Positions 382 to 22,828 of a DNA stretch of 64,000 nt are shown piece by piece. The translations under genes were made by a program, and so were the position numbers. This stretch comes from a virus (taxonomy: Duplodnaviria; Caudoviricetes), in IMG/VR virus record IMGVR_UViG_3300020112_001004, positions 32,001-96,000 of that record; one strand, written 5' to 3'. Position 1 is the first letter of the stretch. Each line of letters begins with the position of its first letter. The notes below the pieces were generated by a model that made no database searches, was not told where the DNA came from, and was given only the letters and a program-made list of their open reading frames with translations.

Positions 382-816
382 ATGGAAGAACTGGAAAGAA
401 TGATGGACGATATAATGGGAATTGCGTTTGAGTTAGAATTCTATTATGACTTAATATTTTATATAGGTGCCATGTATAACGTAGTAAGAGATAAAGACAA
501 TATAGGAGCACCGAGAAAAGAAATAACTCAAGCCACAGAATGCTTGGTTCAATTTGCTAAGGACTTGTATAATGATGGGACTACCACCCAAGAACTTGGA
601 GAAGGGTTATTAGAAGCGTTTATAGAGAGAGGTATAGAATATACGATTGATTCCTGTAAGAATCAAAATTGTCATGTAATCAAAGAGTTATTTAGTATAG
701 TTAAAGACCAGAACTTAAAAGGTGAATATTATATTTTAATTGATTATTTTAGAGAATATTTTATTGATTATATTAAGTATAACGAACCAGATTTATACCT
801 AGAATTTATGTTATAG
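382..816 (+). CDS. Hypothetical protein, member of dispersed paralog family (C-terminal DLYLEFML)
   Basis: GGAGG RBS; shares FYIG, GIEYTI and C-terminal motifs with ORFs at 2149, 5975, 12575, 15081. Confidence 0.8.
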   Translation: MEELERMMDDIMGIAFELEFYYDLIFYIGAMYNVVRDKDNIGAPRKEITQATECLVQFAKDLYNDGTTTQELGEGLLEAFIERGIEYTIDSCKNQNCHVIKELFSIVKDQNLKGEYYILIDYFREYFIDYIKYNEPDLYLEFML

Positions 817-826
817 GAGGGATAAA

Positions 827-940
827 ATGGAAAAATTAGTGGTTTTTTTAGTTTCGTTCTTTGCTTCTGCTTTAATAGGGGGAGTGGTCGCAAAAATATT
901 AATGGGAATTTGGCTTTTCTTTGATAATAAAAGAGTGTAA
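827..940 (+). CDS. Small membrane peptide (37 aa)
   Basis: GGAGG RBS, ATG, hydrophobic MEKLVVFLVSFFASALIGGVVAKILMGIWLFFDNKRV. Confidence 0.6.
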   Translation: MEKLVVFLVSFFASALIGGVVAKILMGIWLFFDNKRV

Positions 941-1038
941 TTTCATTAAAAATTAACGAAATTACGATAAAAATTAATTGAGTAAAAATTAACCACTGGT
1001 GTGGTAATATGATATAAATTAATAATAAGGAGTCAGAT

Positions 1039-1923
1039 ATGGAATTTGATATGCAAGGGCTAAGACATCAATGGGTCGAGGAACTTAAAGGTAGAGTAGA
1101 AAAAATAAAAATGGAGTTAGGTATAACACCAACACTCGTAATATTATCTGCTAAAGACTATGATGAAGCGTCTAAATTATACGTAAATAATAAAATAAAA
1201 ATTTGTGAAGAAGTTGGAGCTAAGGGCGTTCAGTTAAAAATAGCGTGGAGGGATAAATCCAAAGAAGAGTTAGAACGAGAACTTGCTGGTCTTATAGATT
1301 GTTTAAACTCCGATGAGAACTGTCACGGTATAATATTACAACTACCTTTCCCTATTATATCCAAAGGATTCGCTGATAATTTGATAAAAGCAGAGAAGGA
1401 TGTTGACGTTTTTAGTGACCTAAATAAAGGAAAGATAATGAGTGGTAATTATTCTTTACTCCCAGCAACAGTTCTAGGGATTAAGAAGATTATAGATAGT
1501 CAGTTTAAAACATTAAGGGGACAGAATATTTGCGTAATTAACAGGTCGCAACTAATAGGGGTACCATTGGCTAACTTGTTGGTTAATGAAGGGGCGACAG
1601 TCAGCGTTTTGAACTCTTCAACCTATTGGTACAACAGAGATTTGTTAATGAAGACCTCAGACATAATTATTACAGCCACTGGAAATAGAGGAATATATAA
1701 TAGCAATGATATAGGTGATAATTGTAAATTAATAATAGATTGCAGTATGAAAAAGGTCGATAATATAAAGGGAGTCGGAGACTTCGTTAAGGAAGATATA
1801 TTAGTTAATAGAGAAGAGGTAGTAATTAGCTCTGGGTACGGTCAAACCGGAGTGGCTACGACTCTCGCTGTTGTAGATAATTTATTATCTTGCTGTGAAA
1901 ATAATTTAAAAAAGGAGTGTTAA
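1039..1923 (+). CDS. folD: Bifunctional methylenetetrahydrofolate dehydrogenase/cyclohydrolase
   Basis: YVNNKIKICEEVG, HGIILQLPFP, EKDVD, LPATVLGI, NRSQLIGVPLANLL..GATV motifs typical of FolD. Confidence 0.9.
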   Translation: MEFDMQGLRHQWVEELKGRVEKIKMELGITPTLVILSAKDYDEASKLYVNNKIKICEEVGAKGVQLKIAWRDKSKEELERELAGLIDCLNSDENCHGIILQLPFPIISKGFADNLIKAEKDVDVFSDLNKGKIMSGNYSLLPATVLGIKKIIDSQFKTLRGQNICVINRSQLIGVPLANLLVNEGATVSVLNSSTYWYNRDLLMKTSDIIITATGNRGIYNSNDIGDNCKLIIDCSMKKVDNIKGVGDFVKEDILVNREEVVISSGYGQTGVATTLAVVDNLLSCCENNLKKEC

Positions 1924-2031
1924 TATGAAGAAGATAGTTAATAAAATAAAAGAGATAGTTAAAACAATAGGTGAGATATACAAAAATAAAAGAAATAATA
2001 TTTAGGAGGTTAATACCTCCAGTACATAGTG

Positions 2032-2069
2032 GCAACAAGTTAGATAATTATGATAATAATATAATATAA
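2032..2069 (+). promoter_or_regulatory. Copy of bipartite motif GTAAC-N19-ATAATATAATATAA (putative phage early/middle promoter)
   Basis: Same spacing at 2032 (GCAAC variant), 5910, 8738, 10821, 13071, 14017, 18478, 20012, 22093, 22848, 25223, degenerate at 329; always upstream of an RBS. Confidence 0.7.
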
Positions 2070-2148
2070 GGAGGAGCAATCCCCCTAGTACATATTGAAC
2101 CATATGTCTACCCAAAGGTAGTTAAATAATAATTAGGAGTGTTATTAA

Positions 2149-2604
2149 ATGGAATTAGAAGAGATAAACAAGATAAAATTGGTAAAAAAAATAATAAAAT
2201 CTTCAAGGATAATAGAAGAAGAATTTGGTGGGGGTTATCTTTATAAAAATGATTTAATCAAACTAGGTGCTTTTGTGTCATATTTAATGGCAGACACCTA
2301 TAGTGGACTACTAAACTTATATATCAAAAATGATATAAAACAAATAAAAAGAATATATTTTGACGCAAGGACAATGTCGGATTTACTTGATTATACTGAC
2401 AGAACGACGAGGATATTTCTTAGGTCAAATTTAATAACCGGTATGGAATTTATATTCTTCTCAAAATGGGATGACATTATAACAAAGATGATAGAGTTTA
2501 CGAAGAAGAAAATTGAAGATAAAAATATAGGAGAAAAGGACATTTACTTTATAGAACTATTAAAACGTGAATGTGCACTGCATGGTTATGAAATAGATTT
2601 TTAA
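2149..2604 (+). CDS. Hypothetical protein, divergent member of the paralog family (lacks the terminal motif)
   Basis: DLIKLGAFVSY and TGMEFIF match the two internal family motifs. Confidence 0.7.
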   Translation: MELEEINKIKLVKKIIKSSRIIEEEFGGGYLYKNDLIKLGAFVSYLMADTYSGLLNLYIKNDIKQIKRIYFDARTMSDLLDYTDRTTRIFLRSNLITGMEFIFFSKWDDIITKMIEFTKKKIEDKNIGEKDIYFIELLKRECALHGYEIDF

Positions 2605-2626
2605 CTAATTTAAAAGGGGCGATATT

Positions 2627-3559
2627 ACGGGTAAAAGAATAAAATGGACTATAGAAAAGATTAAAGAAAAATGTGAAGAGCAAGGAGCAGAATGTTTAGA
2701 GGAGGAATATGTAAATAATGCCACTAAAATGAAATTTAAATGTGGGTGTGGGAATGAATATGTGGCAAGATGGAATGATGTTGTTGGTAAAAATCAATGG
2801 CAGTGTTCAGAATGTAGTGGCAATGCAAAATGGACTATAGAAAAGATTAAAGAAAAATGTAGAGAACATGACGTTGAGTGTTTGGAAGATAAATATGTAG
2901 ATAATAAAACCAAAATGAGATTTAAATGTAAATGTGGGAATGAGTATGAAGCAAAATGGAATAGTGTTATTGGTAGAAACCAATGGCAATGTCCAAAATG
3001 TAGTGGTAGAGCAAAATGGACTATAGGAGAGATTAAAAGAATATGTAAAGAACATGGAGTAGAATGTTTAGAAAAAGAATATGCAAATGCTAGAACTAAA
3101 ATGAGATTTAAATGTAAATGTGGAAACGAATATGTGACAAGTTGGGATAAAGTTACTAGACAAAATCAATGGCAGTGTTCAGAGTGTAATGGCAAAACCA
3201 GTAAAGGTGAAACAATAACCCGTGAATTTTTATCAAAGTTACTAAAAGATGAAAACCTATTTGAAGAACAAAAGACATTTGAAGATTTAGTCGATGAAAA
3301 ATTATTATCTTATGATTTCTTTATTCCAGAATTCAATATCTTAATTGAGATACAGGGTGTCCAACATTATAAACCAATAGAAATGTTTGGGGGAGAAAAA
3401 CAATTTAAAAAACAACAACACCATGATAAATTAAAAAGAGAATACGCAGAGCAAAATGAACTTATACTAATTGAGATACCTTGGAATTGTAATGGGATAG
3501 ATACCGAGGAAAAATTAATTGAAGAATTAAAAAATAAATTAAGTGGGCTTATTAAATAA
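2627..3559 (+). CDS. Free-standing putative homing endonuclease: CxC...CxxC zinc-ribbon repeats + Vsr/PD-(D/E)XK-like nuclease domain
   Basis: Three repeats KWTIE..C..C...Y....KM.FKC.CG..W....WQC..C; C-terminal YDFFIP..LIEIQGVQHY..D.LK; frame open upstream of ATG 2729 to ACG 2627, 7 nt after AAAAGGGG. Confidence 0.8.
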   Translation, partial: TGKRIKWTIEKIKEKCEEQGAECLEEEYVNNATKMKFKCGCGNEYVARWNDVVGKNQWQCSECSGNAKWTIEKIKEKCREHDVECLEDKYVDNKTKMRFKCKCGNEYEAKWNSVIGRNQWQCPKCSGRAKWTIGEIKRICKEHGVECLEKEYANARTKMRFKCKCGNEYVTSWDKVTRQNQWQCSECNGKTSKGETITREFLSKLLKDENLFEEQKTFEDLVDEKLLSYDFFIPEFNILIEIQGVQHYKPIEMFGGEKQFKKQQHHDKLKREYAEQNELILIEIPWNCNGIDTEEKLIEELKNKLSGLIK

Positions 3560-3641
3560 GGAGGTTTATGCCTCCAGTACATATTGAACTATATGTCTAC
3601 CATTAGGTAGTTAATAAATAATAATTAGGAGTGTGTTATTA

Positions 3642-5888
3642 ATGGGATATGAAGACAGAAAGTATACAGGGAAGAGTGCCACTTTGAAGGTGAATTTTTG
3701 TAGAAAACTTTATAATAATGGCAACTATTATGTAGCAAGTTTTTTTATTTTGGAGCTCCAACATGGGGAACTCTCTCTGCCATATGGCGAAGAAAATCTA
3801 GTAGCTAATGGGAAAATTACCTGCGATTTAGACAAGGATTATGAGTACATTCTAACAGTAAAAGAATATGAAGACCCAAAATATTCAACAAGTCACGAGA
3901 TTTGTAGTATAGTTCCAATAATTAAAGTAGATTCACTAGATGAACAGATTATCTTTTTAAGAAAAATACTAACCCAGACACAATTTAGTAATTACTATGA
4001 TGTATTTGGAGGTAGCGAGGATTTACTTAAACCCCTAAAAAAAGGCGATACGAAATCATTATTAAAGATAAAAGGAATAGGTCTGAATACAGTAGATAAA
4101 CTATTAAATAAATATGAGAATAATATAGCAAATGCTAATATTATTATTAAAATTGCTAAATATGGGCTAAGTGACTCAGAAATTTGTCTGATGATTAAAA
4201 GTGGATTCAATGAGACCGAAATAGTAAAAACAATGGAGCGTAATCCATATGAATTCATCTCAAAAGTTAAAGGGTTGGGGTTCAAAAAGATAGATGCTAT
4301 AGCCTTAAAAAATGGAATAAAAGAAGAAGATTTAAGGAGAATCAAAGGATTCATAACCTATGCGATAAATAAAAGAGTAGAGAATGGTAGTACTAAAATT
4401 GGTTTAGACGAACTCGAGCAAGAGTTGGATAATGAATTTGGTGTGGATTTTAATATTGATTTAGCTATTGAAGCTTTAAAAGATATGGAACAAAATGAGG
4501 ACTTATGGGTTAGTGCTGATAGAAGCGACATCACTACAACAGCTATTAGAGAAAGTGAAAGATATGTTGCTAAAAGATTAATTGATATTATGAGAGACGA
4601 AACTAAATTAGATTATGATTTGGGAAAGATAAAAGTAGCAGAGAAGAGTCAAGGCTTTGAATATTCAGAAGAACAAAGAGGGGCTATTAAACAGCTACTA
4701 GAGAACAAAATAAGCGTATTAACAGCCCTAGGGGGTTCTGGTAAAACAGCCGTAGTAAGAGGAGCGTTAGCTTGTCTTAAAGAAGGCTATGATATAAGGC
4801 TTATGGCTTTATCGGGAAAAGCTTCGTCAGTATTAGCAAATGCTTCTGGATTAGAAGCTAGTACAATTCACAAGTTTTTAATTGATAAAGTAAGAGAAAA
4901 TATTGTACCAGACGTTGTAGTTATAGATGAATGCTCGATGCCAGATATAGGTCTTACTTACAAGTTGTTACAACTCCTACCTAACACTGTGAAAATAATA
5001 TTTATTGGTGACCCAAACCAACTACCAGCAATAGGTGCCGGAAATCTATTGTTTGATATGTTAGAGAGTGGTGTTATTCCAACGATTAGATTAACAAGAA
5101 TTTATAGACAAGGATTAAGGTCTGGCATAGTGACAGAATCTAGAAAGATAACAGAAGATAAAAATATATTGGAAGACGGGTATGGCGTAACTGTAAAAGG
5201 TGAAGATAAGGATTTTATAATGGATATTTATAAAGAAAAAGAAGATAGTTTGGATAAGGTTATGGACTACTATAAGAAATTATTAAAAAAATATAAACCT
5301 AAAGATATAGTAGTGTTATCTTGTGTAAAAACAAGAGGCGAGGCTTGTACCTATAATATAAATAATAAAATCCAAGAGATATTGTTTAAACCAAATGAGA
5401 GACATATAGTTGTGGGCAAGAAGGATAGAGAGTTTAAAATTCATGTAAAAGATATAGTTATCAATGGGAAAAATAATCCTAAATGTGTTTGTGACGAAGG
5501 AACAGTTGGTATTTATAATGGAGAGGTTGGGACGGTAATTTCCATAGACGAAACAGAAAAGACTATTTGTGTTAATTTTGGTAAGGGAAGAGAATGTGTT
5601 TATATAAATCAAGAACAAATGGCTCATATAGAACTAGGGTATTCTTACACAATACATCGTAGCCAAGGAATAACAATCCCTGCTACCATAATGGTTTTAG
5701 ATAATACTATGATAATGATGGCGAATAAAAATTTAATATATACTGGTATAACTAGAGCAAAAGATATTTGTTATTTAGTAGGACAAAAAACAACATTGCA
5801 AAAAGGGTTAAGAACAAGTGGAATTGCAAAAAGAAAAACTTTCTTGAAAGAGTTTTTAGAGGAATACGGAACTAAATTAGAGGGTTAA
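3642..5888 (+). CDS. recD2: RecD2-like SF1B helicase
   Basis: Walker A ALGGSGKT, STIHK, VIDECSM, GDPNQLPAIGAG, IYRQ, TIHRSQG, YTGITRAK; N-terminal HhH (IKGIG). Confidence 0.9.
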   Translation: MGYEDRKYTGKSATLKVNFCRKLYNNGNYYVASFFILELQHGELSLPYGEENLVANGKITCDLDKDYEYILTVKEYEDPKYSTSHEICSIVPIIKVDSLDEQIIFLRKILTQTQFSNYYDVFGGSEDLLKPLKKGDTKSLLKIKGIGLNTVDKLLNKYENNIANANIIIKIAKYGLSDSEICLMIKSGFNETEIVKTMERNPYEFISKVKGLGFKKIDAIALKNGIKEEDLRRIKGFITYAINKRVENGSTKIGLDELEQELDNEFGVDFNIDLAIEALKDMEQNEDLWVSADRSDITTTAIRESERYVAKRLIDIMRDETKLDYDLGKIKVAEKSQGFEYSEEQRGAIKQLLENKISVLTALGGSGKTAVVRGALACLKEGYDIRLMALSGKASSVLANASGLEASTIHKFLIDKVRENIVPDVVVIDECSMPDIGLTYKLLQLLPNTVKIIFIGDPNQLPAIGAGNLLFDMLESGVIPTIRLTRIYRQGLRSGIVTESRKITEDKNILEDGYGVTVKGEDKDFIMDIYKEKEDSLDKVMDYYKKLLKKYKPKDIVVLSCVKTRGEACTYNINNKIQEILFKPNERHIVVGKKDREFKIHVKDIVINGKNNPKCVCDEGTVGIYNGEVGTVISIDETEKTICVNFGKGRECVYINQEQMAHIELGYSYTIHRSQGITIPATIMVLDNTMIMMANKNLIYTGITRAKDICYLVGQKTTLQKGLRTSGIAKRKTFLKEFLEEYGTKLEG

Positions 5889-5974
5889 TATCCCTCTTCT
5901 ACATAAACGGTAACGTTTTTGAGTATAATGACCATAATATAATATAAATAAAATAATTAATTGGGAGTGTAGGT

Positions 5975-6487
5975 ATGAATAATAATTTTGATAAAAAAGT
6001 AGTTGAAGTATTAGAAAAAGATATGGAAGGGTTTAAAAAACTAAACAGTCGTAGTGGGGTTCTTAATTATCCATTGTTTAATATATATAATTTATTTGAA
6101 TTGGGGACTTTATTATCATATGGGTTTAGCGCTATTTATCTTGAAGAATGTGAAACTGGTGGTTTTGAAACTTTAAAAGGTATTGACACTACGACTATAA
6201 CAGGAGAAGGCGATGGTAGAGGTTCTGTGTATACTCTTTTTGGTCAGCATAACATAGGGATGGGTCAAGGTTTGAGTTTAAAAAATTTTGAAGAGGCGTA
6301 TAGAATGATGACTATAGGGGTTGATTTTTTATTAAATTATGACTGTTTAACCGAGCCCTTGGTTGAACAAGTGCTTGAGACATCTTTGAACAAGTGGTAT
6401 GCAGATATGGTCAAGAATGAGTTAATTAAGAGATTCAAAAAAGATGTGAATAAATACGGAGATTATTTGCTAGAATTTATGCTATAG
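5975..6487 (+). CDS. Hypothetical protein, paralog family (C-terminal YGDYLLEFML)
   Basis: RBS; LFELGTLLSY, IGVDFLL and terminal motif. Confidence 0.8.
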   Translation: MNNNFDKKVVEVLEKDMEGFKKLNSRSGVLNYPLFNIYNLFELGTLLSYGFSAIYLEECETGGFETLKGIDTTTITGEGDGRGSVYTLFGQHNIGMGQGLSLKNFEEAYRMMTIGVDFLLNYDCLTEPLVEQVLETSLNKWYADMVKNELIKRFKKDVNKYGDYLLEFML

Positions 6488-6488
6488 C

Positions 6489-6553
6489 TGGGGTTAGACC
6501 CCAAGTACATATTTAATATGTACCCACTCTTAGAGGGGTTAATTTAAAAGGAG
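6489..6553 (+). repeat. Stem-loop/TACATA/stem-loop leader element (triple-hairpin subfamily)
   Basis: TGGGGT-TAG-ACCCCA ag TACATATTTAATATGTA CCCACTCTTAGAGGGG TTAATTTAAAAGGAG; the part from TACATA onward is near-identical in the copies at 9447, 11875, 14769. Confidence 0.85.
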
Positions 6554-6564
6554 AGATTATAGAT

Positions 6565-8694
6565 ATGGGACTTAAAGTTGTAAAGAGAGACGGAATACTA
6601 GTAGATTTTGACGCAAACAAGATTGTTGAGGCAATATCAAAAGCTTGTAGAGAGGTTGGAGAAGAGGAGGAATTACTTAAACAGATTTCAAGACATATAA
6701 GTAGGGAAATTGAAAAAATAGCTGAACAAAAAAGAAAAGCAATAAAAATAGAAGAGATACAAGATTTAGTAGTAAAAATGTTAAAAGACACTGGATTTAA
6801 TAAAGTTAGTAAAGTCTATCAAGAGTACAGAGAAAGAAGGACGGCGATTAGAGAGGCAAATAGCAATTTACTAAAGAGTGTTAGGGGTGTAATAGATGGT
6901 AGTAACGATGACGTATTAAAAGAAAATGCTAATAAAAATGGTTACGTGTCTAGTATACAAAGAGATTTGGTAGCCGGTGAAATATCAAGAGCTATAGCTA
7001 AAACAATGATACCCGAGGATATAATACAAGCCCATTATGAAGGGCTTATAAAAATCCATGATTTAGATTACTATATGTCACCAATTCATAATTGTGGATT
7101 AATAAATTTACAAAGTATGTATACTAACGGAACTGTTATAAATGGCGTAAAAATAGAAACGCCAAAAAGTTTAAGGACAGCAATGAATCTTGCTACCCAA
7201 ATAGTGTGTCAAGTCGCTAGTCAACAATATGGTGGTAACACTATAAGCTTGGGACATATGGCGCCTTTTGTAAGAGTAAGTAAGAATAAACTAATAAAAA
7301 AATATAACAAATACCACTTAGACCAAGACACAAGAGATAGATTAGTCAACGAAGAATTAAAAGGGGAAATTAAAGATAGCGTACAACTGTTTAATTACCA
7401 ACTTTTAACTCTTAATAGCACCAATGGTCAAAGCCCATTTACAACTCTTGTAATAGATATAAACGAGGACGTTGAGTACACAGAAGAGATAGTAATGTTA
7501 GCAGAGGAATTCTTAAAACAAAGAATACAAGGAATGCCTAATGACAAGGGCGTATTTATAACTCAAACATTCCCTAAGATAATATATATGTTGGATGAGA
7601 ATAATATATATGAAAATTCTAAATATTATTGGCTAACCAGACTATGTGCAGAGTGTACTGTTAAAAGAATGGTTCCAGACTATATGTCTGTTAAAATGTT
7701 GATGAAGCACGTTGGGGCTAAAATTCCTACGATGGGATGCAGAAGTGAACTAACACCTTTATGGGACGAGGAAGGAAACCTTTTAAGTTGGGGAAGAGGG
7801 AACGTAGGAGTAACCACTATTAATTTACCATACGTGGCTTTATTGAGTAAAGAAGAAAACAGAGATTTCTTTGAAGTGTTAGATGAGAAATTGGAGCTAT
7901 GCAAAAAAATGGGTTGCTTAAGATTTGACAAACTAAAAGGGGTAAAAGCAAGTATAAGCCCTATATTGTGGCAACATGGTGCATATTTAAGACTTCAACC
8001 AGACGAAGAGATTTTACCACATTTAAAGAAATTATTTACAGTATCTTTGGGCTATAGTGGACTATATGACTGCGTAAAAGTTTTAACAGGTGAGAGTCAT
8101 ACCGACGGTATTGGTAAAGCCCTAGGATTAACAATAATGGAACACCTAGATGATAAATGTAAACAATGGAAAGAAGAAACAGGGTATTTATTCGGAGTCT
8201 ATGGCACTCCTATGGAGTCTAGTACGGACTGGTTCTGTAAAGCTATCAAAAGGAGATTTGGAGAGGTCAAGGACGTAACAGATAAAGGATATATAGTTAA
8301 TAGCTACCATATAGACCCTAGAGAGGAGATAGACGCTTTCACTAAGTTAAGTGTCGAGGCTGAGTTCCAAAAACACAGTTTAGGTGGTTCAATATCTTAC
8401 GTAGAAACACCAGATATGACTAAAAATATTGAAGCTGTTTTAGATATAATGAGGCACATTTACGAAAACAACATCTATGGAGAGTTAAATATAGAATGTG
8501 ATTATTGTGCAGAATGTGGAAGTTTTATGGTGGCAAACCTAGACGAAAACCAACATTGGAGCTGTGGGAATTGTGGATGTGATGACTATGACAAACTAAA
8601 TATAATAAGAAGATGTTGTGGTTATATTGCAGATATGAAACACGCCAACGAGGGTAGACTAAACGACGTAAAGGCTAGAGTAAAGCATATTTAA
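6565..8694 (+). CDS. nrdD: Anaerobic (class III) ribonucleoside-triphosphate reductase with ATP cone
   Basis: VVKRDG ATP cone, IHDLDY, MGCR, C-terminal CxxC pairs and RRCCGY glycyl-radical motif. Confidence 0.95.
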   Translation: MGLKVVKRDGILVDFDANKIVEAISKACREVGEEEELLKQISRHISREIEKIAEQKRKAIKIEEIQDLVVKMLKDTGFNKVSKVYQEYRERRTAIREANSNLLKSVRGVIDGSNDDVLKENANKNGYVSSIQRDLVAGEISRAIAKTMIPEDIIQAHYEGLIKIHDLDYYMSPIHNCGLINLQSMYTNGTVINGVKIETPKSLRTAMNLATQIVCQVASQQYGGNTISLGHMAPFVRVSKNKLIKKYNKYHLDQDTRDRLVNEELKGEIKDSVQLFNYQLLTLNSTNGQSPFTTLVIDINEDVEYTEEIVMLAEEFLKQRIQGMPNDKGVFITQTFPKIIYMLDENNIYENSKYYWLTRLCAECTVKRMVPDYMSVKMLMKHVGAKIPTMGCRSELTPLWDEEGNLLSWGRGNVGVTTINLPYVALLSKEENRDFFEVLDEKLELCKKMGCLRFDKLKGVKASISPILWQHGAYLRLQPDEEILPHLKKLFTVSLGYSGLYDCVKVLTGESHTDGIGKALGLTIMEHLDDKCKQWKEETGYLFGVYGTPMESSTDWFCKAIKRRFGEVKDVTDKGYIVNSYHIDPREEIDAFTKLSVEAEFQKHSLGGSISYVETPDMTKNIEAVLDIMRHIYENNIYGELNIECDYCAECGSFMVANLDENQHWSCGNCGCDDYDKLNIIRRCCGYIADMKHANEGRLNDVKARVKHI

Positions 8695-8928
8695 ATATAA
8701 GGAGGATTAAATCCTCCACTACATAGTTACCTTTTAGGTAACAAATTAAAACAGCTTGTCTATAATATAAAGAAAATAATTTAAAAGGAGATTTATTATG
8801 GAAGTAAAACAAATAATCTGTTCTAAGGACTCTCATATAGCTAAACAAAAACAAAACAACCCAGACCACAAGTTTTCAAAAGAAATAAAAATAAAAAATA
8901 ATTAAACAATCTAAAAGGAGTGTTGTTA

Positions 8929-10883: not shown

Positions 10884-11540
10884 ATGGACATAGTGGTTAA
10901 AGAAATAGAGAAAAAGTTAACTTATGATTTTATATTAAATAAGCACTATGCAAAGAGGAAACCTAGTATAAGTTGGGCGTATGGATTATATATAGATAAT
11001 AATTTAGAAGGTGTATTAACCATAGGTAAACCAGCATCTAATTCACTATGTAAAGGTATATGTGGAGAAAAATATAGTAAACAGGTGTTTGAATTAAACA
11101 GGTTATGTGTTAACGAAGGATTGGAAAAAAATATATTAAGTCGATTTGTATCAAAAGTATTGAAGGATTTAAAGAAGCACAATCTAATAATAGTATCATA
11201 TGCAGATGAGGGTATGCACCATCATGGTTATATATATCAAGCTACAAATTTTATTTACACAGGAGCGACTCTTGGGAGGACAGACAAATATGTACCACGA
11301 GGTAAACACAGTAGGCACTATGATAAAGGAGACGAGTTTAGTCATCTAAGGGTTGTAAGAAGCGTGAAGCACAGATATGTATATATATGTGGAGACAAGA
11401 AATTCAAAAAAGAAATAATGCAGTGCATGAATTATAAGGAAAAACCTTATCCAAAAGGAAATAATGAAAGATATGTTTTAGGGGAAGAGCAAAAAAGATT
11501 AATATATAATAAAAAGACCCACGAGTATTATTATGATTAA
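10884..11540 (+). CDS. Mom-like DNA adenine modification enzyme (GNAT fold)
   Basis: HY, GKPAS, ELNRL, SYAD..HHGYIYQATNFIYTG motifs characteristic of the Mom family. Confidence 0.8.
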   Translation: MDIVVKEIEKKLTYDFILNKHYAKRKPSISWAYGLYIDNNLEGVLTIGKPASNSLCKGICGEKYSKQVFELNRLCVNEGLEKNILSRFVSKVLKDLKKHNLIIVSYADEGMHHHGYIYQATNFIYTGATLGRTDKYVPRGKHSRHYDKGDEFSHLRVVRSVKHRYVYICGDKKFKKEIMQCMNYKEKPYPKGNNERYVLGEEQKRLIYNKKTHEYYYD

Positions 11541-12574: not shown

Positions 12575-13069
12575 ATGAGCGCAACGCCACTACAGAAAGA
12601 AGCTTTAGAATCTATTTTATGGAATGAAGAGCATATATTGCCTCTTCATTGTTTCTATATTGGTTTCTTTCTAAACAATACCAATGACGAAACAATTAAA
12701 AACACCCTTATTCAGAATAACTTAAAAGATAAAGAATACCCACAGTATTATCACTATTATTTTGACTTTAGAAAATACGGTGAATTTATATGGGATTTAA
12801 AAGATTATTTTTATTCAGCCAAATCTGAAAAGGTAGAAATGGTGGAACAGTGTGGAATAATTGGAATGGACTATATAATAAAAGAGCTTGGGTATACAAA
12901 CCACTTATCTTCTTTTGTAGACCATATGGCAAAGTTGGGATATGTATATAGTGGGAAACACATTTTCAATGTTAAGTCCACCCTAGTTTTACTACAAAAG
13001 TATTTACAAACTCACTATGAAGAGGACGTAAAAACGTATGGTGACATTCTATTAAATTTAATGTTGTAA
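12575..13069 (+). CDS. Hypothetical protein, paralog family (C-terminal YGDILLNLML)
   Basis: CFYIGFFL, IGMDYII and terminal motif. Confidence 0.8.
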   Translation: MSATPLQKEALESILWNEEHILPLHCFYIGFFLNNTNDETIKNTLIQNNLKDKEYPQYYHYYFDFRKYGEFIWDLKDYFYSAKSEKVEMVEQCGIIGMDYIIKELGYTNHLSSFVDHMAKLGYVYSGKHIFNVKSTLVLLQKYLQTHYEEDVKTYGDILLNLML

Positions 13070-13124
13070 GGTAACAAATTAAAGCAATATGATAATAATA
13101 TAATATAAGAGAGAGGAGACGCTT

Positions 13125-14012: not shown

Positions 14013-14074
14013 AAAAGTAACAAATGGTATAATATTAATAATAATATAATATAAGTAAAATGGGGGTAGATAAT

Positions 14075-14767: not shown

Positions 14768-14841
14768 TGGGAGGTTTCCTCCCGATACATATTTATTATG
14801 TACCCACTCTTAGAGGGGTTAATTTAAAAGGGGAATGTGAT

Positions 14842-15078
14842 ATGAGTAAAAAAGAAATTATAAAAGAGTTAAAAGAGTTTATAGAAGAGATAAATGACGC
14901 TTCAAAAATATTAAGGAGAAAATATGGCTTAAGAGAAGCAAGAGCTTATATATCAGAAGTTTTTATGGACTTGTGTTTTGATATCGTTCACTTAGGTTTA
15001 GAAGGTGAAATATCTATTACAAGAGATTTTAGTGAAACTAGAATAATATTAAAGTGTTCTGAGGAAGTAGATGAGTAA
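14842..15078 (+). CDS. Hypothetical protein
   Basis: AAGGGG RBS after leader element; ATG 14842. Confidence 0.65.
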   Translation: MSKKEIIKELKEFIEEINDASKILRRKYGLREARAYISEVFMDLCFDIVHLGLEGEISITRDFSETRIILKCSEEVDE

Positions 15079-15080
15079 TC

Positions 15081-15518
15081 ATGGACGTGAAGTATACTAT
15101 TATAAGTAATACACTACAATCCTATACTAATATAATTGGGGAGCTTTGGGTAATAGGATATCTTTTAAAATATAAAAAAATTAATGAACTAAAGAATGAC
15201 TACGAACTACAAAGTGTAAACGGATTCAAACCAACAGTTTCTACGATATTAAATTTAAATGATTGGAGATATCTGGACACAGTTAATCATGGAATGTTTG
15301 GCAGAGATGGAGAGGATTATAAAGCAATATATAATGATTTAACGGATTATGGTATTAGATACATTTTTAGCAATTTTAAAAGAGATGAACTTGAGGGGTT
15401 TTTTAGAGACTTTTATAGTGGGCTTAGATTTCATAAAACAATATGTCAAAGAATAATAAACTATATAGAGAACAATAAGGAAAAATACCCAGATATTTTT
15501 CTTGAGTTGAAATTATAA
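15081..15518 (+). CDS. Hypothetical protein, paralog family (C-terminal YPDIFLELKL)
   Basis: LWVIGYLLKY, YGIRYIF and terminal motif. Confidence 0.75.
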   Translation: MDVKYTIISNTLQSYTNIIGELWVIGYLLKYKKINELKNDYELQSVNGFKPTVSTILNLNDWRYLDTVNHGMFGRDGEDYKAIYNDLTDYGIRYIFSNFKRDELEGFFRDFYSGLRFHKTICQRIINYIENNKEKYPDIFLELKL

Positions 15519-15534
15519 GAAAGTGGGGAAACAA

Positions 15535-16311: not shown

Positions 16312-16392
16312 AAAGATTGATAGAACAGGAGGGTTTTCCTCCTATTACATAACTCACTAAGGTGGGTAATAATATATTAAGGAGTGTTGTAA

Positions 16393-18378
16393 ATGAGCAA
16401 TCAAGTAGCAAGAGAATTAGATGACAGAAGTCAAGCAAGAGAAAGAATAGAAGTATTTTTTGGTTCAAGAGAACAATTTGAGCATGGATTGAAAGAATGT
16501 TTGGCTAACGCCAGTGATGAAATAAATAATAATTTTGACAACGGGGTTGTTGTTGTGAAACTATCAGACGACCTCAAAACAATATCAGTATCTGATACTG
16601 GAAGAGGTATTAATATAGAAGATGTAAATGAAGTAGGGAAGCCATATTACGATATATATTTTAGAACACTTTTTGGAGGAACTAAATTTGATAAAAGTCC
16701 AGATTCAAAAAATATAGGGGCTAACGGTTGTGGGACTTGCTGTCTGAATTATACAAGTGATTATTTTAGTGTAGAATCTATAAGAAATGGCAAAAAATAT
16801 ACTGTGACATTTGAAAATGGTGGAATATTAAAAGAACCAATGAAGATTGAAGATTGTGAAGGGCATGGTTCTACATTTACATTTAAATTAGACCCAACTA
16901 TTTATACTAATACAATTTATAATCCAGAAAGTGTAAAAGCAATAATTTCAAAAGTGTCTGGAGTTAATAATAAAATATTGTATAAATTTATACACCGAAA
17001 CGAGGAAATGGAGTTTCATTATTCTTCTTTTGAGGAATATTATATAAGTGAGTATGGAGAGGAAAATAAAATAGGGTTAACAACTAAAAATTATAAAACA
17101 GAATATGATAAGGAAGTTAAACAATTTGATGAAGAAACATTGACTTGGAACACAAAAACAGTGCACGTAATAGAAGATACCGAGATAACATGTATCTTAG
17201 GAATAAGAAAAGAGGGAGTAAACCAAGACGGGTATTTAAATGGTAATTATCTTCCTTTAGGTGGTACGATAAATGACGGTGTGTTAGAAGGGGTTGCTGA
17301 ATTTACCAACAAGTATTGTAAAGACAATGCGTTATATAAAAAAACCGACAAGGGTATAAGAAGTAAAAATTTAGAATCTATATTAAGCTTTGCCGTGTCA
17401 TTGAGTAATAGCATACCAGAGTTCCAATCTCAAACTAAGTTGCGTACTGAAAAGAAATTGTATAAAACTCTAGTAAAAGATTATATAAAAGAAAAGTTGC
17501 AAATTTTTTCATTAGAAAACCAAGCAAGTTTTAACAAATTTGTGGAAACAATTCTTATATTTAACCGTGCAAATGAAAAAGCGAGTGCAGTGTTATCTGA
17601 CGTTAAAAAGAGATTAGAAAAAGAATTAACAGCGAAAGAAAGAATAGCTATAAAGAATTATATGTCAGCTATAAACGACGAAGGAGACGCAGACCTTTAT
17701 GTCGTTGAAGGAGGTTCAGCCGGTGGTGGTGTTATATCTGCCAGACTGAAAGAATCCCAAGCAATATTTTCAATCAAAGGTAAATCGTTAAATGTTTCCA
17801 AGAAAGATATAACTAAAATATTAAAAAATGAAGAAATTATGAATCTGTTTACTCTATTAGGATGTGGAATAGAATATAATGGTAAGAAAGCTAAAAATAT
17901 GCCAGTTTTTAATATAGATAAATTAAGATTTAGATATATATACTTGTTTGCAGATTCCGACGAAGATGGCAAAGCAGTTAGAACATTACTTGTAAACGTG
18001 TTTAATACTTTAGCCCCAGAACTAATAAAACAGGGGAGGGTAAGAGTGGTATATGCTCCATTATATATTTATAGCACTAAAGAGAAAGATTATTATATAT
18101 ACGACGAGAAAGACAAAGGTGAGTTAGAGGATAAATTAAAAAACGATGGAGTTAGATACACCAGAAAAAGATTTAAAGGAATAGGTTCATTAAATTCTAG
18201 GGAATTGCACGAGAGCACAATGAACAATCCCAATAGACCAGAAGTTGTTTTGACTTTAGAAGATGCTGAAAAGACCAACGAGTTATTGGATAATTGGTTT
18301 ACTGACGGAGGTTTACAATACAGAAAAGATTCTATCATAAAATATGCCAAAGAATTTAAAATTTCTGATTTAGAATAA
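16393..18378 (+). CDS. Type IIA topoisomerase subunit B (GyrB/ParE-like)
   Basis: ECLANASDE, DTGRGI, GANGCG (GHKL), FQSQTK, VEGGSAGG, ADSDEDG (TOPRIM), RFKGIG. Confidence 0.93.
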   Translation: MSNQVARELDDRSQARERIEVFFGSREQFEHGLKECLANASDEINNNFDNGVVVVKLSDDLKTISVSDTGRGINIEDVNEVGKPYYDIYFRTLFGGTKFDKSPDSKNIGANGCGTCCLNYTSDYFSVESIRNGKKYTVTFENGGILKEPMKIEDCEGHGSTFTFKLDPTIYTNTIYNPESVKAIISKVSGVNNKILYKFIHRNEEMEFHYSSFEEYYISEYGEENKIGLTTKNYKTEYDKEVKQFDEETLTWNTKTVHVIEDTEITCILGIRKEGVNQDGYLNGNYLPLGGTINDGVLEGVAEFTNKYCKDNALYKKTDKGIRSKNLESILSFAVSLSNSIPEFQSQTKLRTEKKLYKTLVKDYIKEKLQIFSLENQASFNKFVETILIFNRANEKASAVLSDVKKRLEKELTAKERIAIKNYMSAINDEGDADLYVVEGGSAGGGVISARLKESQAIFSIKGKSLNVSKKDITKILKNEEIMNLFTLLGCGIEYNGKKAKNMPVFNIDKLRFRYIYLFADSDEDGKAVRTLLVNVFNTLAPELIKQGRVRVVYAPLYIYSTKEKDYYIYDEKDKGELEDKLKNDGVRYTRKRFKGIGSLNSRELHESTMNNPNRPEVVLTLEDAEKTNELLDNWFTDGGLQYRKDSIIKYAKEFKISDLE

Positions 18379-18406
18379 TATAAAGATTAAGCAATAATGC
18401 GACTTG

Positions 18407-18440
18407 TAGAGAGTGTAGACCACTCTCTATTCTTTTTTAT
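18407..18440 (+). terminator. Intrinsic terminator after topoisomerase B subunit
   Basis: TAGAGAGTG-TAGAC-CACTCTCTA followed by TTCTTTTTT. Confidence 0.75.
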
Positions 18441-18538
18441 TTTGGGTGATTAATAAGTGATAAATGCGTCATTAAAAGTAACAATTTAAAACGAGTTGAT
18501 AATAATATAATATAAAATAAAATTAGGAGTGTGGAGAA

Positions 18539-18802
18539 GTGAAAAAACTAAAATATGCATTAATTGCTGGTATTGGCATTTGTGTTGGCTTAGGTATTGG
18601 AATCGGAGTTGGTATGATGACTGGAGGAAAAGTCTATAAAGAACACAAAGAAGAAAACAGAGATGGGGTTATATATTCAATAGACGAGTATAGCTATTTC
18701 TCTAAAGATGGTAATTGGTCTAAACATGTCTATGAAGAAGTGAAAGATGAAAATAGTGTTAAGATATTATATGACAAAATAACCACCGAAGAGAAAGAGT
18801 GA
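18539..18802 (+). CDS. Small membrane-anchored/secreted protein
   Basis: N-terminal KK plus Gly-rich hydrophobic helix. Confidence 0.7.
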   Translation: MKKLKYALIAGIGICVGLGIGIGVGMMTGGKVYKEHKEENRDGVIYSIDEYSYFSKDGNWSKHVYEEVKDENSVKILYDKITTEEKE

Positions 18803-18830
18803 ATGTAGATTTAAATATGGGGGTGTTAAT

Positions 18831-20015
18831 ATGGGAATAGTAAGAACTATACTACTATATTTACAATATTACTTATTAGGTAGTTTTATTGTCAGTTTAA
18901 TAATTTCTTTAATAGGAATTAAAAAACCAAAGAAGATATACTATAGGTCTTTTGAAGAGAAAAATTCTTATCTTATATTAATACCAGCCCATAATGAAGA
19001 ACAGGTTATAGAAAAAAATTTAGATAAAATATATAATTGTAGTTACGATAGAAGAAAATTAAGAGTCGTAGTATGTTGCGATAATTGCACGGATAACACT
19101 ATAAAGGTAGTAAAAAGGTTTGCAAATTCTCACGAAGATTTAGATATAATAACCACAGAGGTGAACGGTGGGACTAAAGGTAAGAATTTAGAGTTAAGTG
19201 TTGAATGGCTTATAGAACATGGGTTATATGATAAAGACAATGTGGTTGTAATAGATGCAGATAATAATATATCTAGCACAATGTTTAATTGTTTTAATTA
19301 CTGGAACATTAAAGGAGAAAAAATAGTACAAGTCGCAATAAGAAGTTTAAACGAAGAGAGTTTTATAGCAAAAGGATTCACGGCTTCTTTCTCCTCAATG
19401 AATGTAGGACACCAATTGGCTAGAATGAGATTAGGTTTATCTGGGTCTTTGTGTGGAACATGTTTTTCAGTGGAGAGAGAATTGTTTTTAAAAGAATTTT
19501 TAAAATGCCAATCTTTAACAGAAGATTTAGAGGCATCAATAGAATGTATATGCAAAGGATATAAAATAAAATTTGACATAAATGAATACGTATTAAATGA
19601 GAATCTTGATAAATTAAAACCAGCAAATAAGCAAAGAATAAGATGGAACAAAGGTCATATAAATGTAATGTTAACAAAATCCATAAAACTAATGAAATAT
19701 TTTTTTAAAAATCCAGTACAAGCCATAGATAGTTTACATTTCATAACTTCGCCCCTAAGATACGTTTTGTTTGTAGTAGGGGTTGTCCTAGGAGTGGTTG
19801 TTAAACCGGTTATTAGTAAGAACATTTTAATAATATCCCTATTATCCTTAATAATATATTTGTTGCATACATTGTATTGTGTAAACTTTAAGATAAGATA
19901 TTTATTACCTAGTATTTGGTATAGCATAACTATGATATATTGTATGATGGTGGCAGTGTTTGACTATAGAAATAAAACTTGGGCGAAAACAAAGCATGTT
20001 GGTCAACAAGGGTAA
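18831..20015 (+). CDS. Membrane-bound GT2 processive-type glycosyltransferase
   Basis: IPAHNEE, DNCTD, DAD, TEDLE, KQRIRW; N- and C-terminal TM helices. Confidence 0.9.
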   Translation: MGIVRTILLYLQYYLLGSFIVSLIISLIGIKKPKKIYYRSFEEKNSYLILIPAHNEEQVIEKNLDKIYNCSYDRRKLRVVVCCDNCTDNTIKVVKRFANSHEDLDIITTEVNGGTKGKNLELSVEWLIEHGLYDKDNVVVIDADNNISSTMFNCFNYWNIKGEKIVQVAIRSLNEESFIAKGFTASFSSMNVGHQLARMRLGLSGSLCGTCFSVERELFLKEFLKCQSLTEDLEASIECICKGYKIKFDINEYVLNENLDKLKPANKQRIRWNKGHINVMLTKSIKLMKYFFKNPVQAIDSLHFITSPLRYVLFVVGVVLGVVVKPVISKNILIISLLSLIIYLLHTLYCVNFKIRYLLPSIWYSITMIYCMMVAVFDYRNKTWAKTKHVGQQG

Positions 20016-20066
20016 CAATTTAAAACGAGTTGGTAATAATGTAATATAAATAATTTGGAGGTTGAA

Positions 20067-21617
20067 ATGAATAGAAAACAAGAAACATTTAATTCAGTAA
20101 ACGAAAATATAAAAGCATTAGCAAGTTTATTTCCATCAGCAGTTAAAGATGGACAAGTAGATTTTGAAGCGCTAAAAGAGGAGTTAGGTCAATTTGAAGA
20201 AGTTGAAAAAGAAAAGTATGAATTAATGTGGTCTGGAAAACAGAACGCTAAAAAACAAGCACAACAAGAAGTTTTAGGAAAGACATTAAAGTATGTACCA
20301 GAAGACAGCAAAAACCCAGAAACAACAGAAAATCTTTATATAGAAGGAGATAACCTAGAGGTATTAAAACTTTTAAGACAAGACTATTATAGTTCTATAA
20401 GGATAATTTATATTGACCCACCTTATAATACTGGAAACGATTTTGTGTATAATGATAATTTTTCAATGGCTAAAGGAGAAAGTGATATTGCAGAGGGGAA
20501 TACTTCAGACTTAGGTGAAAGGTGTATAGCAAACAAAGACACCAACAACAAATGTCATGCAAATTGGCTTAATATGATATACCCAAGACTTAAAATTGCT
20601 AGGGACTTATTAACAGATGACGGTGTTATATTTATATCTATTGACGATAGTGAACAAGATAGCTTGAAAAAAATTTGTAATGAAATATTTGGTGAAGAAA
20701 ATTTTGTAGGAACATTTTTAAGAAAAACTTCATATGGGGAAAAAACAGCCAAACCTAAAATTAATAGACATCATGAGTATCTTTATATTTATTCAAAAAA
20801 TATCAGTACTTTATCACAATGTGATATTATACACGGAAAGAAAAAGACATTTTCTGATTATAGCAATCCAGACAATGACCCTAATGGGGATTGGAAAAAA
20901 GATTCTTATTTGATAAAAATTGATACAGGGAGACAAGGATTGGCAAGATATAAAATAACAAATCCTTATCTAAATATAACCCATTATCCACCAGTTTATT
21001 ATAATGAATCAAACAGAAAACAATGGCATTATGTGGAAGAAACTTTCAATAGAATGGTAAGTGAGGGTAGGGTTGTATTCTATAAAACAAAAGAAGAAAT
21101 GGGTAATAGTGAATATAGTTTTTTCATAAAAAAATATAAGAAAGATGTTAATGAAATATATAATAATTTGAGTACTATTGAATTTATAGATAATGATTTT
21201 ATTAATGCTAAAGGTACAGATAGTTTAAAAACTCTTTTTGCCGATGTTAATGTTTTTAGCAATTCTTATCCTAAACCTTTAACTTTTATAAAAAAAATAA
21301 TTACTTCAATAAAAGAAAATGAAAACTCAATAATACTAGATTTTTTCAGTGGCTCTTCAACTACAGCACACGCAGTTATGCAACTTAATGCAGAGGATGG
21401 TGGTAATCGTAAATTTATAATGGTTCAACTTCCAGAAGAAACTTCTAAGGAATCGGAGGCTTATAAAGCTGGATATAAAAATATCTGTGAAATTGGCAAA
21501 GAGCGTATTAGACGTGCTGGTGAAAAGATAAAAGAAGAAAACAAGGATAAAGAGGGAATAGAGGGTTTAGATATAGGTTTTAAGGTATTTAGAGTGGAGG
21601 ATAGTGAAAATGAATAA
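20067..21617 (+). CDS. Type III R-M Mod-like adenine DNA methyltransferase (orphan)
   Basis: IEGDNLEVLK, YIDPPYNTG, YPKP, ILDFFSGSSTTAHAV, RKFIMVQ; no Res gene adjacent. Confidence 0.9.
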   Translation: MNRKQETFNSVNENIKALASLFPSAVKDGQVDFEALKEELGQFEEVEKEKYELMWSGKQNAKKQAQQEVLGKTLKYVPEDSKNPETTENLYIEGDNLEVLKLLRQDYYSSIRIIYIDPPYNTGNDFVYNDNFSMAKGESDIAEGNTSDLGERCIANKDTNNKCHANWLNMIYPRLKIARDLLTDDGVIFISIDDSEQDSLKKICNEIFGEENFVGTFLRKTSYGEKTAKPKINRHHEYLYIYSKNISTLSQCDIIHGKKKTFSDYSNPDNDPNGDWKKDSYLIKIDTGRQGLARYKITNPYLNITHYPPVYYNESNRKQWHYVEETFNRMVSEGRVVFYKTKEEMGNSEYSFFIKKYKKDVNEIYNNLSTIEFIDNDFINAKGTDSLKTLFADVNVFSNSYPKPLTFIKKIITSIKENENSIILDFFSGSSTTAHAVMQLNAEDGGNRKFIMVQLPEETSKESEAYKAGYKNICEIGKERIRRAGEKIKEENKDKEGIEGLDIGFKVFRVEDSENE

Positions 21618-22104
21618 TATAAAGTTTAAACAAACAATGAGATTTTATGGAGAGCCAAAGCTTAAAAAACCTGTTGAGTTAAAAGGAGTAAAGAAAAACT
21701 TTTCGGTAGATTATATACCTAAAAAATGTAAGTGCGACGTATATATAGTAGGTAATAATATATGGGTAATGCATAGGGATTATTTTAGCCCTAGCCTAGA
21801 ACTAAAAGAAGAAGATATAGGTGCTCCATTAAGTGTGTTATGTGAAAAGTATTTGGAAAAAAACAGGGGTAAAAAATTTGTATATGATGACGCTTGGGGT
21901 GATATAGTCCTTAAAAACGAGGCTTGGATATGTATAGAAAACGTAGTTGAGTTTGCTAAAAATAACTTGCCATACAAAACAGTTTCAGAGGTTATTTCTC
22001 AACAGGAAAGAATAAATGGATTTGAAGAATATGAATTGGTGGGGACATGTATGGAAAGAATGTGGGAAAGTATATTTGCTAGAATTTACAAGGTAACAAT
22101 TTAA
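21610..22104 (+). CDS. Hypothetical protein coupled to the methylase gene
   Basis: GGAGG RBS, overlaps the mod stop. Confidence 0.7.
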   Translation: MNNIKFKQTMRFYGEPKLKKPVELKGVKKNFSVDYIPKKCKCDVYIVGNNIWVMHRDYFSPSLELKEEDIGAPLSVLCEKYLEKNRGKKFVYDDAWGDIVLKNEAWICIENVVEFAKNNLPYKTVSEVISQQERINGFEEYELVGTCMERMWESIFARIYKVTI

Positions 22105-22195
22105 AACGAGCTGATAATAATATAATATAAGGAGGAGTAATCCCCCTAGTACATACTTGCCTAAAGGTGGGTAAATAATTTAAGGGAGATTAATA

Positions 22196-22828
22196 ATGGG
22201 AGTCAAAGAAATAAATCAATTAATAGCCAAACTCGAGGACGAGTTTAACGCTACAGAGAGAGCCACGCCAAGGAAGTATGATTCTGATTGGAAGCTTCAC
22301 CTTGTAGTAGAGAAATATTACTATGTCAACTGTAGATTAAGAGATATTATAACCACTGAGGAAGGGTTAAGAGAGGCTTATTATCAAGTATATCTGAAGT
22401 TGTTTTCTATTTATCTAAAGCGTTTAGTCAAAAAGAACTATAGTGGATTACTATACGAGATAAAATATCTTTGTTGGGTTATTGAGTTTAAGAATGATTT
22501 TTTTGTTGAGAATTGTTGCTCCAGAAAGGGCGTTCTTTGGGTTGTCAAATATAATAATCCTACTAATTACTTAACCAAAGAGCATGGTTACTGTGGTTAT
22601 GATATAACTAGAACACCTTCGGATTACTCGGAGGATATTCTAAAGGAAGCAGTCCAAGTGGTTTATAGTATGATTGGTGGACAGTTTGATAAACAAGTAT
22701 ATAAGGATAAAGCAGTGTTAGAACAACCTACAGAGGAGGGATGGCATAAACTTGTCATGTATTGTTTAGATTATTTCCAAGAGGGGAAATTAAAAGACGA
22801 ATTATACCTTGAGTGCATGTTAAGTTAA
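22196..22828 (+). CDS. Hypothetical protein with family-like C-terminus (DELYLECMLS)
   Basis: RBS, leader element upstream, terminal motif similar to the paralog family. Confidence 0.7.
   Translation: MGVKEINQLIAKLEDEFNATERATPRKYDSDWKLHLVVEKYYYVNCRLRDIITTEEGLREAYYQVYLKLFSIYLKRLVKKNYSGLLYEIKYLCWVIEFKNDFFVENCCSRKGVLWVVKYNNPTNYLTKEHGYCGYDITRTPSDYSEDILKEAVQVVYSMIGGQFDKQVYKDKAVLEQPTEEGWHKLVMYCLDYFQEGKLKDELYLECMLS

Follow-up and report, generated by a model that had tools for sequence, protein, structure and literature searches.

A 23-member family of small, predicted all-helical proteins with a conserved C-terminal ending in one phage lineage, associated with a repeated promoter-like element

We analyzed a stretch of 64,000 nucleotides (the window) from the Caudoviricetes virus record IMGVR_UViG_3300020112_001004, a contig of 112,402 bp with 31.6% G+C, no end repeats and a completeness of about 76%; the window is bases 32,001-96,000 of this contig. 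The original prediction, made from the letters of the window, had singled out six small open reading frames (ORFs), five of them with a similar extreme C-terminal ending, as a diversified family with variable bodies and a constant tail that docks on one partner. A regular-expression and profile scan of all 112,402 bp, which extends the search to the rest of the genome as had been proposed, enlarges the family to 23 paralogs of about 145 amino acids (aa) with the C-terminus [FY]P[DE]xYL[ED]xxL, together occupying 10.2 kb, or approximately 9% of the contig. Four members lie in the window, six more lie upstream of it, and 13 form a tandem array just outside it. The ORFs originally named and the outlying groups are listed here (window positions, unless given as genome positions).

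382..816, plus strand: ORF 382, family member, 144 aa, tail EPDLYLEFML; full-length match to the family hidden Markov model (HMM), tail matrix score 27.1 bits
2149..2604, plus strand: ORF 2149, orphan of 151 aa without the tail, not a demonstrable member
5975..6487, plus strand: ORF 5975, family member, 170 aa, tail YGDYLLEFML
12575..13069, plus strand: ORF 12575, most divergent family member, 164 aa, tail YGDILLNLML
15081..15518, plus strand: ORF 15081, family member, 145 aa, start MDVKY, tail YPDIFLELKL
22196..22828, plus strand: ORF 22196, 210 aa, separate subfamily, tail KDELYLECMLS
genome 1,737-11,838 (L001), plus strand: upstream group of six family members
genome 104,460-111,210 (L003), minus strand: tandem array of 13 family members, broken by one HU-like gene
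genome 106,379-106,690 (L003:10379-10690), minus strand: gene for the HU-like DNA-binding protein inside the array

The five tail-bearing ORFs exist with the endings read from the window, and the view of them as a single diversified family, scattered among replication genes, whose bodies evolve fast and whose C-terminal ending stays constant, was borne out with a change in membership: ORFs 382, 5975, 12575 and 15081 belong to the family, ORF 22196 bears the tail and represents a separate subfamily, and ORF 2149 drops out. Pairwise BLASTP among the six ORFs gives weak matches confined to the tail, and homology is detectable only via profiles built from copies outside the window. A profile from non-window copies only, run against 402 ORFs, recovers ORF 15081 at E = 1e-6, ORF 382 at E = 4.6e-3 and ORF 5975 at E = 9e-3. 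Leave-one-out profiles (each window gene and its near-identical ortholog removed, metagenomic relatives included) were searched against the 402 ORFs, with the following E-values for the full-length comparison and after removal of the last 20 residues, respectively: 2e-14 and 2.6e-4 for ORF 15081, 4.9e-7 and 3.1e-4 for ORF 5975, 2.5e-4 and 0.021 for ORF 382, and 0.62 and 0.029 for ORF 12575. The truncated-profile values indicate that the bodies are homologous, not the tails alone; the variable bodies are one diverged fold rather than unrelated folds. ORF 12575 is the weakest window member by profile; its HMM alignment is collinear and full-length, its three motifs are in register, and its tail scores 21.9 bits on a matrix for which the best of 200,000 random C-termini reached 17.3 bits.

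The three motifs noted in the window occupy the same alignment columns across the 23 paralogs: the N-proximal one corresponds to an invariant glycine (G36, in GY(I/L)I), the central one to IGxDF (G96, D98 and F99), and the third to the tail. Among 130 predicted proteins, a relaxed tail pattern is found in ORF 22196 and in 22 of the 23 members, in each case at the C-terminus (23 in all), and at no internal position. The proteins are mostly acidic (isoelectric point 4.3-6.1 in 21 of 23 members), cytoplasmic and all-helical. In a tree, each window member sits on a very long branch (2.8-4.3 substitutions per site) beside a close ortholog from another sample, and the array copies form younger clusters. 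The family, with its 23 copies, is confined to one phage lineage, and ORFs 382, 5975, 12575 and 15081 are old and divergent within it.

ORF 22196 has a paralog of 61% identity at genome 484-1134 (L001) and six more homologs on short metagenome contigs. The tail is kept across the eight homologs, all of which end in KDELY(L/I/W)EC(V/M/A)L with or without one extra residue (S, G or A), and in ORF 22196 it reaches 13.0 bits (P = 2e-5 per protein), against 0.9 for the highest-scoring unrelated protein. The body has no match to the family profile. An hhalign comparison places the last 60 residues on the last 60 of the family, IGxQF on IGxDF and tail on tail (E = 0.016, with a probability of only 2.8%). 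The AlphaFold2 (AF2) model of ORF 22196 is all-helical, with a predicted local distance difference test (pLDDT) of 88.5 and a last helix at residues 198-209, and residues 136-210 are handled as a separate bundle in many structural alignments. In our reading, ORF 22196 represents a second subfamily, in which a different N-terminal body is combined with the shared tail and perhaps with the C-terminal module as well. ORF 2149 was considered as a tail-less member and rejected (HMM E = 0.13-0.35; hhalign probability 0.5%); its only homologs are near-identical ones. Just upstream of ORF 22196, a 166-aa ORF without the tail (window 21604-22104, plus strand) reaches E = 0.0029 against the enlarged family profile; it was left out of the family because the match is limited to a short central stretch, and it may be a decayed relative or a chance match.

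We evaluated how isolated the family is among known sequences and folds. No family in Pfam, PHROGs, NCBIfam or PADLOC is matched by more than one of the 23 members (best E about 0.005-0.01), the named window ORFs scanned singly against Pfam and PHROGs have no match, and PDB sequences give nothing below E = 0.4 against the family profile. Foldseek searches of PDB and BFVD with the family and ORF 22196 models returned no relative and only generic helical matches (E of at least 0.5); the matches from VIA exhaustive structural alignment are also generic and helical (best Z 5.0 for the family model and 5.9 for the ORF 22196 model), and ESM Atlas scores, at most 0.82, are uninformative. An HMMER profile search of 1.84 billion representative proteins gave 18 matches of 38-173 aa, none longer than 173 aa. 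Two of these belong to the phage itself; the contig encodes none of the remaining 16, and the five of them that were traced lead to short Logan metagenome contigs, several being near-identical orthologs. Motif-seeded, back-translated scans detected no relative in IMG/VR or in GTDB species genomes. In the annotated phage collection, a megablast search with 24 kb and tblastn searches with ORF 5975 and one core member yielded nothing meaningful, and no family homolog was found there, SPbeta and phiCD211 being among the phages that lack one.

The AF2 model of the family, built on the alignment of the 23 paralogs, has eight helices (pLDDT 89.3; predicted template modeling score 0.87). The best VIA match superimposes 61 residues of the model range 75-146 onto a 67-residue designed bundle at 2.1 A, and from this alignment the last four helices, the tail included, appear to form one compact unit in the model. 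The tail is modeled as a helix at 138-145 (block pLDDT 94 and 88). The docking tail of the original prediction is thus replaced by a confidently predicted helix (pLDDT about 88-94) within a compact helical bundle. Column statistics over 37 sequences fit this picture of a helix: P138 is nearly invariant, which we read as an N-cap; position 139 is acidic in all 37 and position 143 in 33; leucine occupies position 142 in 36 and position 146 in all 37 (i/i+4 spacing in both pairs); Y141 and position 144 are hydrophobic; and lysine is tolerated at position 145. The pattern is that of a proline-capped amphipathic helix whose Leu/Tyr face would be buried and whose acidic face would be exposed. In the model, the C-terminal module comprises helix 5 (IGxDF), helix 7 (YIIxN), the loop KEEFP and helix 8 (DxYLELML). 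The most conserved columns include the polar residues N133, K134, E135/136, D/E139 and E143, which exceed the needs of a folding core and suggest a functional surface; a common partner of the family is possible.

These observations bear directly on the idea that all copies, and the 210-aa subfamily with them, dock onto a single machine through a transferable peptide formed by the C-terminal ten or so residues, while the bodies bring different cargo. The machine would be the sliding clamp of the host, a Clp unfoldase or the ClpP-like protease encoded by the phage. The tail is indeed the most conserved block and is nearly always terminal, it recurs on the 210-aa protein despite the unmatched body, and YLELML has the same xLxLxL skeleton as QLxLxL, the hexameric clamp-binding motif of bacteria (PMC4564189); the first motif position, however, is Y in 30, L in four and F in three of the 37 sequences, and never Q. 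It would also suit docking on a host clamp that the contig encodes a DnaE-type polymerase and that no clamp gene was found on it, a point of little weight because the contig is about 76% complete and a clamp gene could be in the missing part. The motif is on no other protein of the contig among the 130, the C-termini of the polymerase and helicase included, and the T4-like clamp-docking pattern that had been invoked is therefore not seen. Nor is a free carboxylate at the final leucine needed: nine of the 37 sequences carry one or two residues beyond L146 (E, L, G, GD or PL), some of them charged, and the end of the ORF 22196 subfamily is variable as well, which differs from the free carboxylate at fixed residues that ssrA-like or HbYX-type signals require. 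Taken together, the helical bundle model (with the tail of ORF 22196 likewise a packed helix in its own model), the amphipathic pattern and the extra residues after L146 weaken the case for a disordered docking peptide that needs a free carboxylate, and we consider tail-docked adaptors unlikely.

We estimated selection by the Nei-Gojobori method in 15-column alignment windows over the seven closest tandem copies. The last of these scored (columns 136-150, ending at the tail tyrosine) has proportions of synonymous (pS) and nonsynonymous (pN) differences of 0.57 and 0.15 and a nonsynonymous to synonymous rate ratio (dN/dS) of 0.15; the N-terminal MRVKY segment has pS 0.39, pN 0.07 and dN/dS 0.13; and dN/dS in the body is 0.45-0.68. 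Tail codons vary synonymously among copies (Leu TTA/TTG/CTA/CTT, GAA/GAG, TTT/TTC, and the stops TAA/TAG). Gene conversion and constraint at the DNA level were rejected as the source of tail conservation, because synonymous divergence there is as high as elsewhere. With synonymous divergence high and dN/dS low at both ends, the conserved ends are kept by selection on the protein: the C-terminal module and the N-terminal M-x-x-x-Y are under strong protein-level selection, and the helices between them change three to five times faster.

Directly downstream of the array lie genes for a beta-CASP/RMMBL RNase (486 aa) and a ClpP-family protease (227 aa) at genome 102,073-104,355 (minus strand; L003:6073-8355), followed by a YonJ-like phosphoesterase gene. 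The ClpP-like gene has its own early-type promoter and stands about 1.7 kb downstream of the array, with the beta-CASP RNase gene between, and the order in contig L009 is identical. Its position and promoter would suit a machine onto which tails dock; the protein, however, matches phage head-maturation protease families (PHROGs) equally well, and judging from sequence it could be either a head-maturation enzyme or an early protease. Contig L007 likewise links the HU-like gene found within the array to family members, and phiCD211 has it at the equivalent locus, where the HU and YonJ-like genes stand in the same order and the array between them is absent. Some array spacers (for example, L003:8880-8945, minus strand) contain a GC-rich hairpin followed by GTACATA just ahead of the promoter, as in CCAGAAC-TTTG-GTTCTGG GTACATA.

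A protease matching head-maturation PHROGs near the array, together with the low dN/dS at both termini, could also be accommodated if the proteins were packaged in the capsid and ejected, with the conserved ends as capsid-targeting or processing signals. In T4, variable internal proteins carry a constant targeting peptide. Here the genes lie outside the structural module and use a non-structural promoter class, both termini are modeled within the fold, and the scattered members lack the MRVKY start. We accordingly rate packaged internal proteins as very improbable.

The promoters bring in the affiliation of the phage. Among annotated phages, those nearest to it are the SPbeta group, with a YorL-type polymerase of 39% identity, and the C. 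difficile phages of the phiCD211 group, with a YonJ-like protein of 35% identity. The source is a distant SPbeta/phiCD211-like temperate phage, probably of a low-GC anaerobic Firmicute. The contig encodes an MrpR-like repressor, a DnaB-like helicase, a RecJ-like nuclease, a split DnaE-type polymerase and several DNA methylases. A pattern scan of the genome finds approximately 35 copies of a promoter-like repeat made up of GGTAACAAATT, about 10 nucleotides (nt), (T)G and ATAATAATATAATATA, which a sigma-70 scan reads as GTAACA-17-AATAAT. The copies relevant to the window and the repressor gene are the following.

328..365, plus strand: repeated early-type promoter copy before ORF 382, with the variant 16-mer ATAACAATATAATATA (genome pattern scan)
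5909..5946, plus strand: degenerate repeated promoter before ORF 5975, ACCATAATATAATATA, 29 nt ahead of the start codon
14016-14053: promoter of the operon of which ORF 15081 is the third gene
22092..22129, plus strand: repeated early-type promoter before ORF 22196, with the exact 16-mer and a GGTAACAA box upstream
2053-2068, 13092-13107, 14038-14053, 18499-18514, 20033-20048 and 22869-22884: examples of repeat copies in the window
L002:1619-2545 (L002 being a piece of this contig): MrpR-like repressor gene

Convincing copies are restricted to the two non-structural arms (genome 47-54,884, plus strand, and genome 99,185-111,259, minus strand); the pattern scan found no convincing copy in the structural module. 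Fourteen of the 23 family genes stand directly behind a copy, and the other nine follow another gene within a few bases; ORF 12575 begins 11 nt after the preceding 204-aa gene. About ten early genes of SPbeta have promoters with a repeated element, SPBRE, to which the master repressor MrpR binds (PMC10516654). Taken with the MrpR-like repressor gene, the repeat found here may correspond to the SPBRE operator/promoter; if the analogy holds, lysogens would keep the family repressed and its expression would begin early.

Expression of this kind is relevant to a further interpretation, in which the array is of the immunity type and its copies neutralize diverse toxins, either bacteriocins and polymorphic toxins aimed at the lysogen or abortive-infection toxins of the host. 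Tandem arrays of diversified immunity paralogs are found at type VII secretion system loci of Firmicutes (for example, EsaG/DUF600-type). The family genes are tandem, diversified and small, their products are acidic and helical, turnover is fast, and members in relatives adjoin integrase and Rha genes, maybe at prophage ends. On the other side, no toxin domain lies beside the copies among the neighbors scanned (a 989-aa neighbor has no Pfam match), there is no similarity to Pfam immunity families, and the promoter class is shared with replication genes and, on the SPbeta analogy, would be repressed in lysogens. The non-structural promoter class and the failure to find a toxin partner among the neighbors scanned on this contig, about 76% complete, make both the immunity and the packaged-protein interpretations less likely; we hold the former to be distinctly improbable.

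Comparison with relatives shows that family copies are gained, lost and reshuffled over short distances. Contig L008 is approximately 95% identical in nucleotide sequence around the polymerase and FolD genes, and exactly ORF 382 is missing from it; in the present genome, ORF 382 is flanked by a 17-nt direct repeat of ribosome-binding site (RBS) and start codon, and in L008 the promoter of the missing gene directly drives a 37-aa hydrophobic ORF. ORF 5975 has a 96% identical ortholog at the syntenic place in L008. In L007, the HU-like gene is joined to a different set of members, the array order differs, and one member is without a close counterpart here. The 37-aa ORF is itself strongly hydrophobic, starts MEKLVVFLVSFF and lies at window 827-940 (plus strand), directly 3' of ORF 382 with the same RBS; it may specify a small membrane peptide, or be a gene of the type-I-toxin kind.

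From the observed family, its size, rarity, predicted fold, selection pattern, promoter association and turnover, we infer early timing, host-directed action and a common partner, and we propose that these are early, host-directed accessory proteins with a conserved scaffold or partner module and variable specificity surfaces, a reading to which we assign about an even chance. The proteins would be made early after induction or infection, with host components as their targets in takeover or counter-defence. All copies would have the conserved module in common as a scaffold, or as a surface through which they oligomerize or bind a shared partner, and the variable helices would give each copy a target of its own. 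The role in host takeover or anti-defence that was originally suggested is thus plausible. Several points weigh against this proposal. dN/dS exceeds 1 in no alignment window of the tandem copies, so that positive selection or an arms race is not shown; known anti-defence and takeover proteins give no homology or fold match; and 'early' is read only from the promoter class and the analogy with SPbeta. The conserved ends could simply be the folding core. Burial of the tail, for its part, is deduced from pLDDT, the amphipathic pattern and the bundle alignment, with an AF2 model that depends on the alignment of 23 paralogs.

A bolder form of the host-directed proposal would make the family the phage counterpart of the poxvirus ankyrin/F-box proteins: at least 20 adaptors in which a constant C-terminal module (also grafted onto the 210-aa body) plugs into one machine (the phage's early ClpP-like protease, or a host clamp or unfoldase), while the variable helices each capture a different host protein, such as a defence protein, for destruction or sequestration. 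We regard this as a long shot. Viral multigene families (in poxviruses and African swine fever virus [ASFV]) usually govern host range and immune evasion, and to our knowledge phages rarely give a tenth of the genome to one paralog family. An orphan fold, a conserved module set against variable surfaces, a dedicated promoter class and gene turnover together provide a natural set of variants for finding partners and targets. If the copies do hit different host defences or takeover points, then one locus would supply many new tools; if the conserved module docks on a protease or clamp, then it would represent a new adaptor principle in phages.

The remaining features of the contig concern the neighbors of the family. 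In the window, the named ORFs stand on the plus strand among genes for FolD, a RecD2-like helicase, NrdD, NrdG, an ATP-dependent ligase, a Mom-like protein, RNase H, and GyrB-like and GyrA-like topoisomerase subunits. The Mom-family protein (window 10884-11540, plus strand) matches Pfam at E = 1e-34, and at least three DNA methyltransferases are encoded elsewhere on the contig, a heavy investment in DNA modification by this phage. Interruptions of the DnaE-type polymerase gene differ between two relatives (genome 27,650-32,043, or L002:15650-20000, versus L008:548-5677): the present genome has approximately 320 bp extra at genome 29,091-29,413, and L008 has approximately 1,065 bp with an HNH/NUMOD endonuclease at the point matching genome 30,545. 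These interruptions are probably introns or inteins. A 276-aa protein (window 2729-3559, plus strand) combines three Zn-ribbon-like repeats (KCGCGNEY...) with a distinct C-terminal half. Pfam offers no match for it, the otherwise collinear L008 lacks it, and its gene is probably mobile, of a homing type.

Early accessory blocks of other viruses offer the nearest comparison for the arrangement. The SPO1 host-takeover module and similar blocks consist of many small genes of unknown fold, singly or in pairs behind a repeated strong promoter. In archaeal viruses, early anti-defence genes have been defined by their regulatory sequence (PMC11065993). The present family resembles these blocks in its repeated promoter, in its clustering near one end of the non-structural region and in its variation between relatives; as in SPO1, small genes stand behind multiple copies of an early-type promoter, with 14 of the approximately 35 copies preceding family genes and with timing assigned by promoter class. 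The SPO1 and archaeal blocks hold unrelated genes, whereas here there are 23 paralogs of one orphan family with conserved termini. Poxvirus ankyrin/F-box (PRANC) proteins and the multigene families (MGF) of ASFV are families of tens of copies whose number varies between strains. They share with the phage family arrays near a genome end plus scattered copies, and the PRANC proteins also combine a variable body with a constant C-terminal module; unlike them, the phage family belongs to a bacterial virus, has no relation to them in sequence or fold and no known partner such as Skp1, and its constant module is a helix within the fold.

The T4 proteins gp43, gp33 and gp55 carry C-terminal clamp-docking peptides, which are shared by the polymerase and accessory factors. 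In bacteria, clamp binding of this kind calls for a motif within a flexible segment that takes an extended form in the clamp cleft; the tail is a helix (pLDDT about 88) in the AF2 prediction from the paralog alignment. Bacterial clamp-binding motifs follow QLxLF or QLxLxL (PMC4564189). The tail is like such peptides in being a short, hydrophobic, leucine-rich xLxLxL at the extreme C-terminus, and unlike them in having no glutamine at position 1, in being predicted to be helical and packed, in not occurring on the phage polymerase, and in being restricted to one family and one subfamily. The phage itself resembles SPbeta in its YorL-like polymerase, MrpR-like repressor, YonJ-like and HU-like genes, and in a repeat that marks the promoters of many early genes of unknown function; it differs in having approximately 35 repeat sites, compared with approximately ten in SPbeta, and in possessing a family that is absent from both SPbeta and phiCD211.

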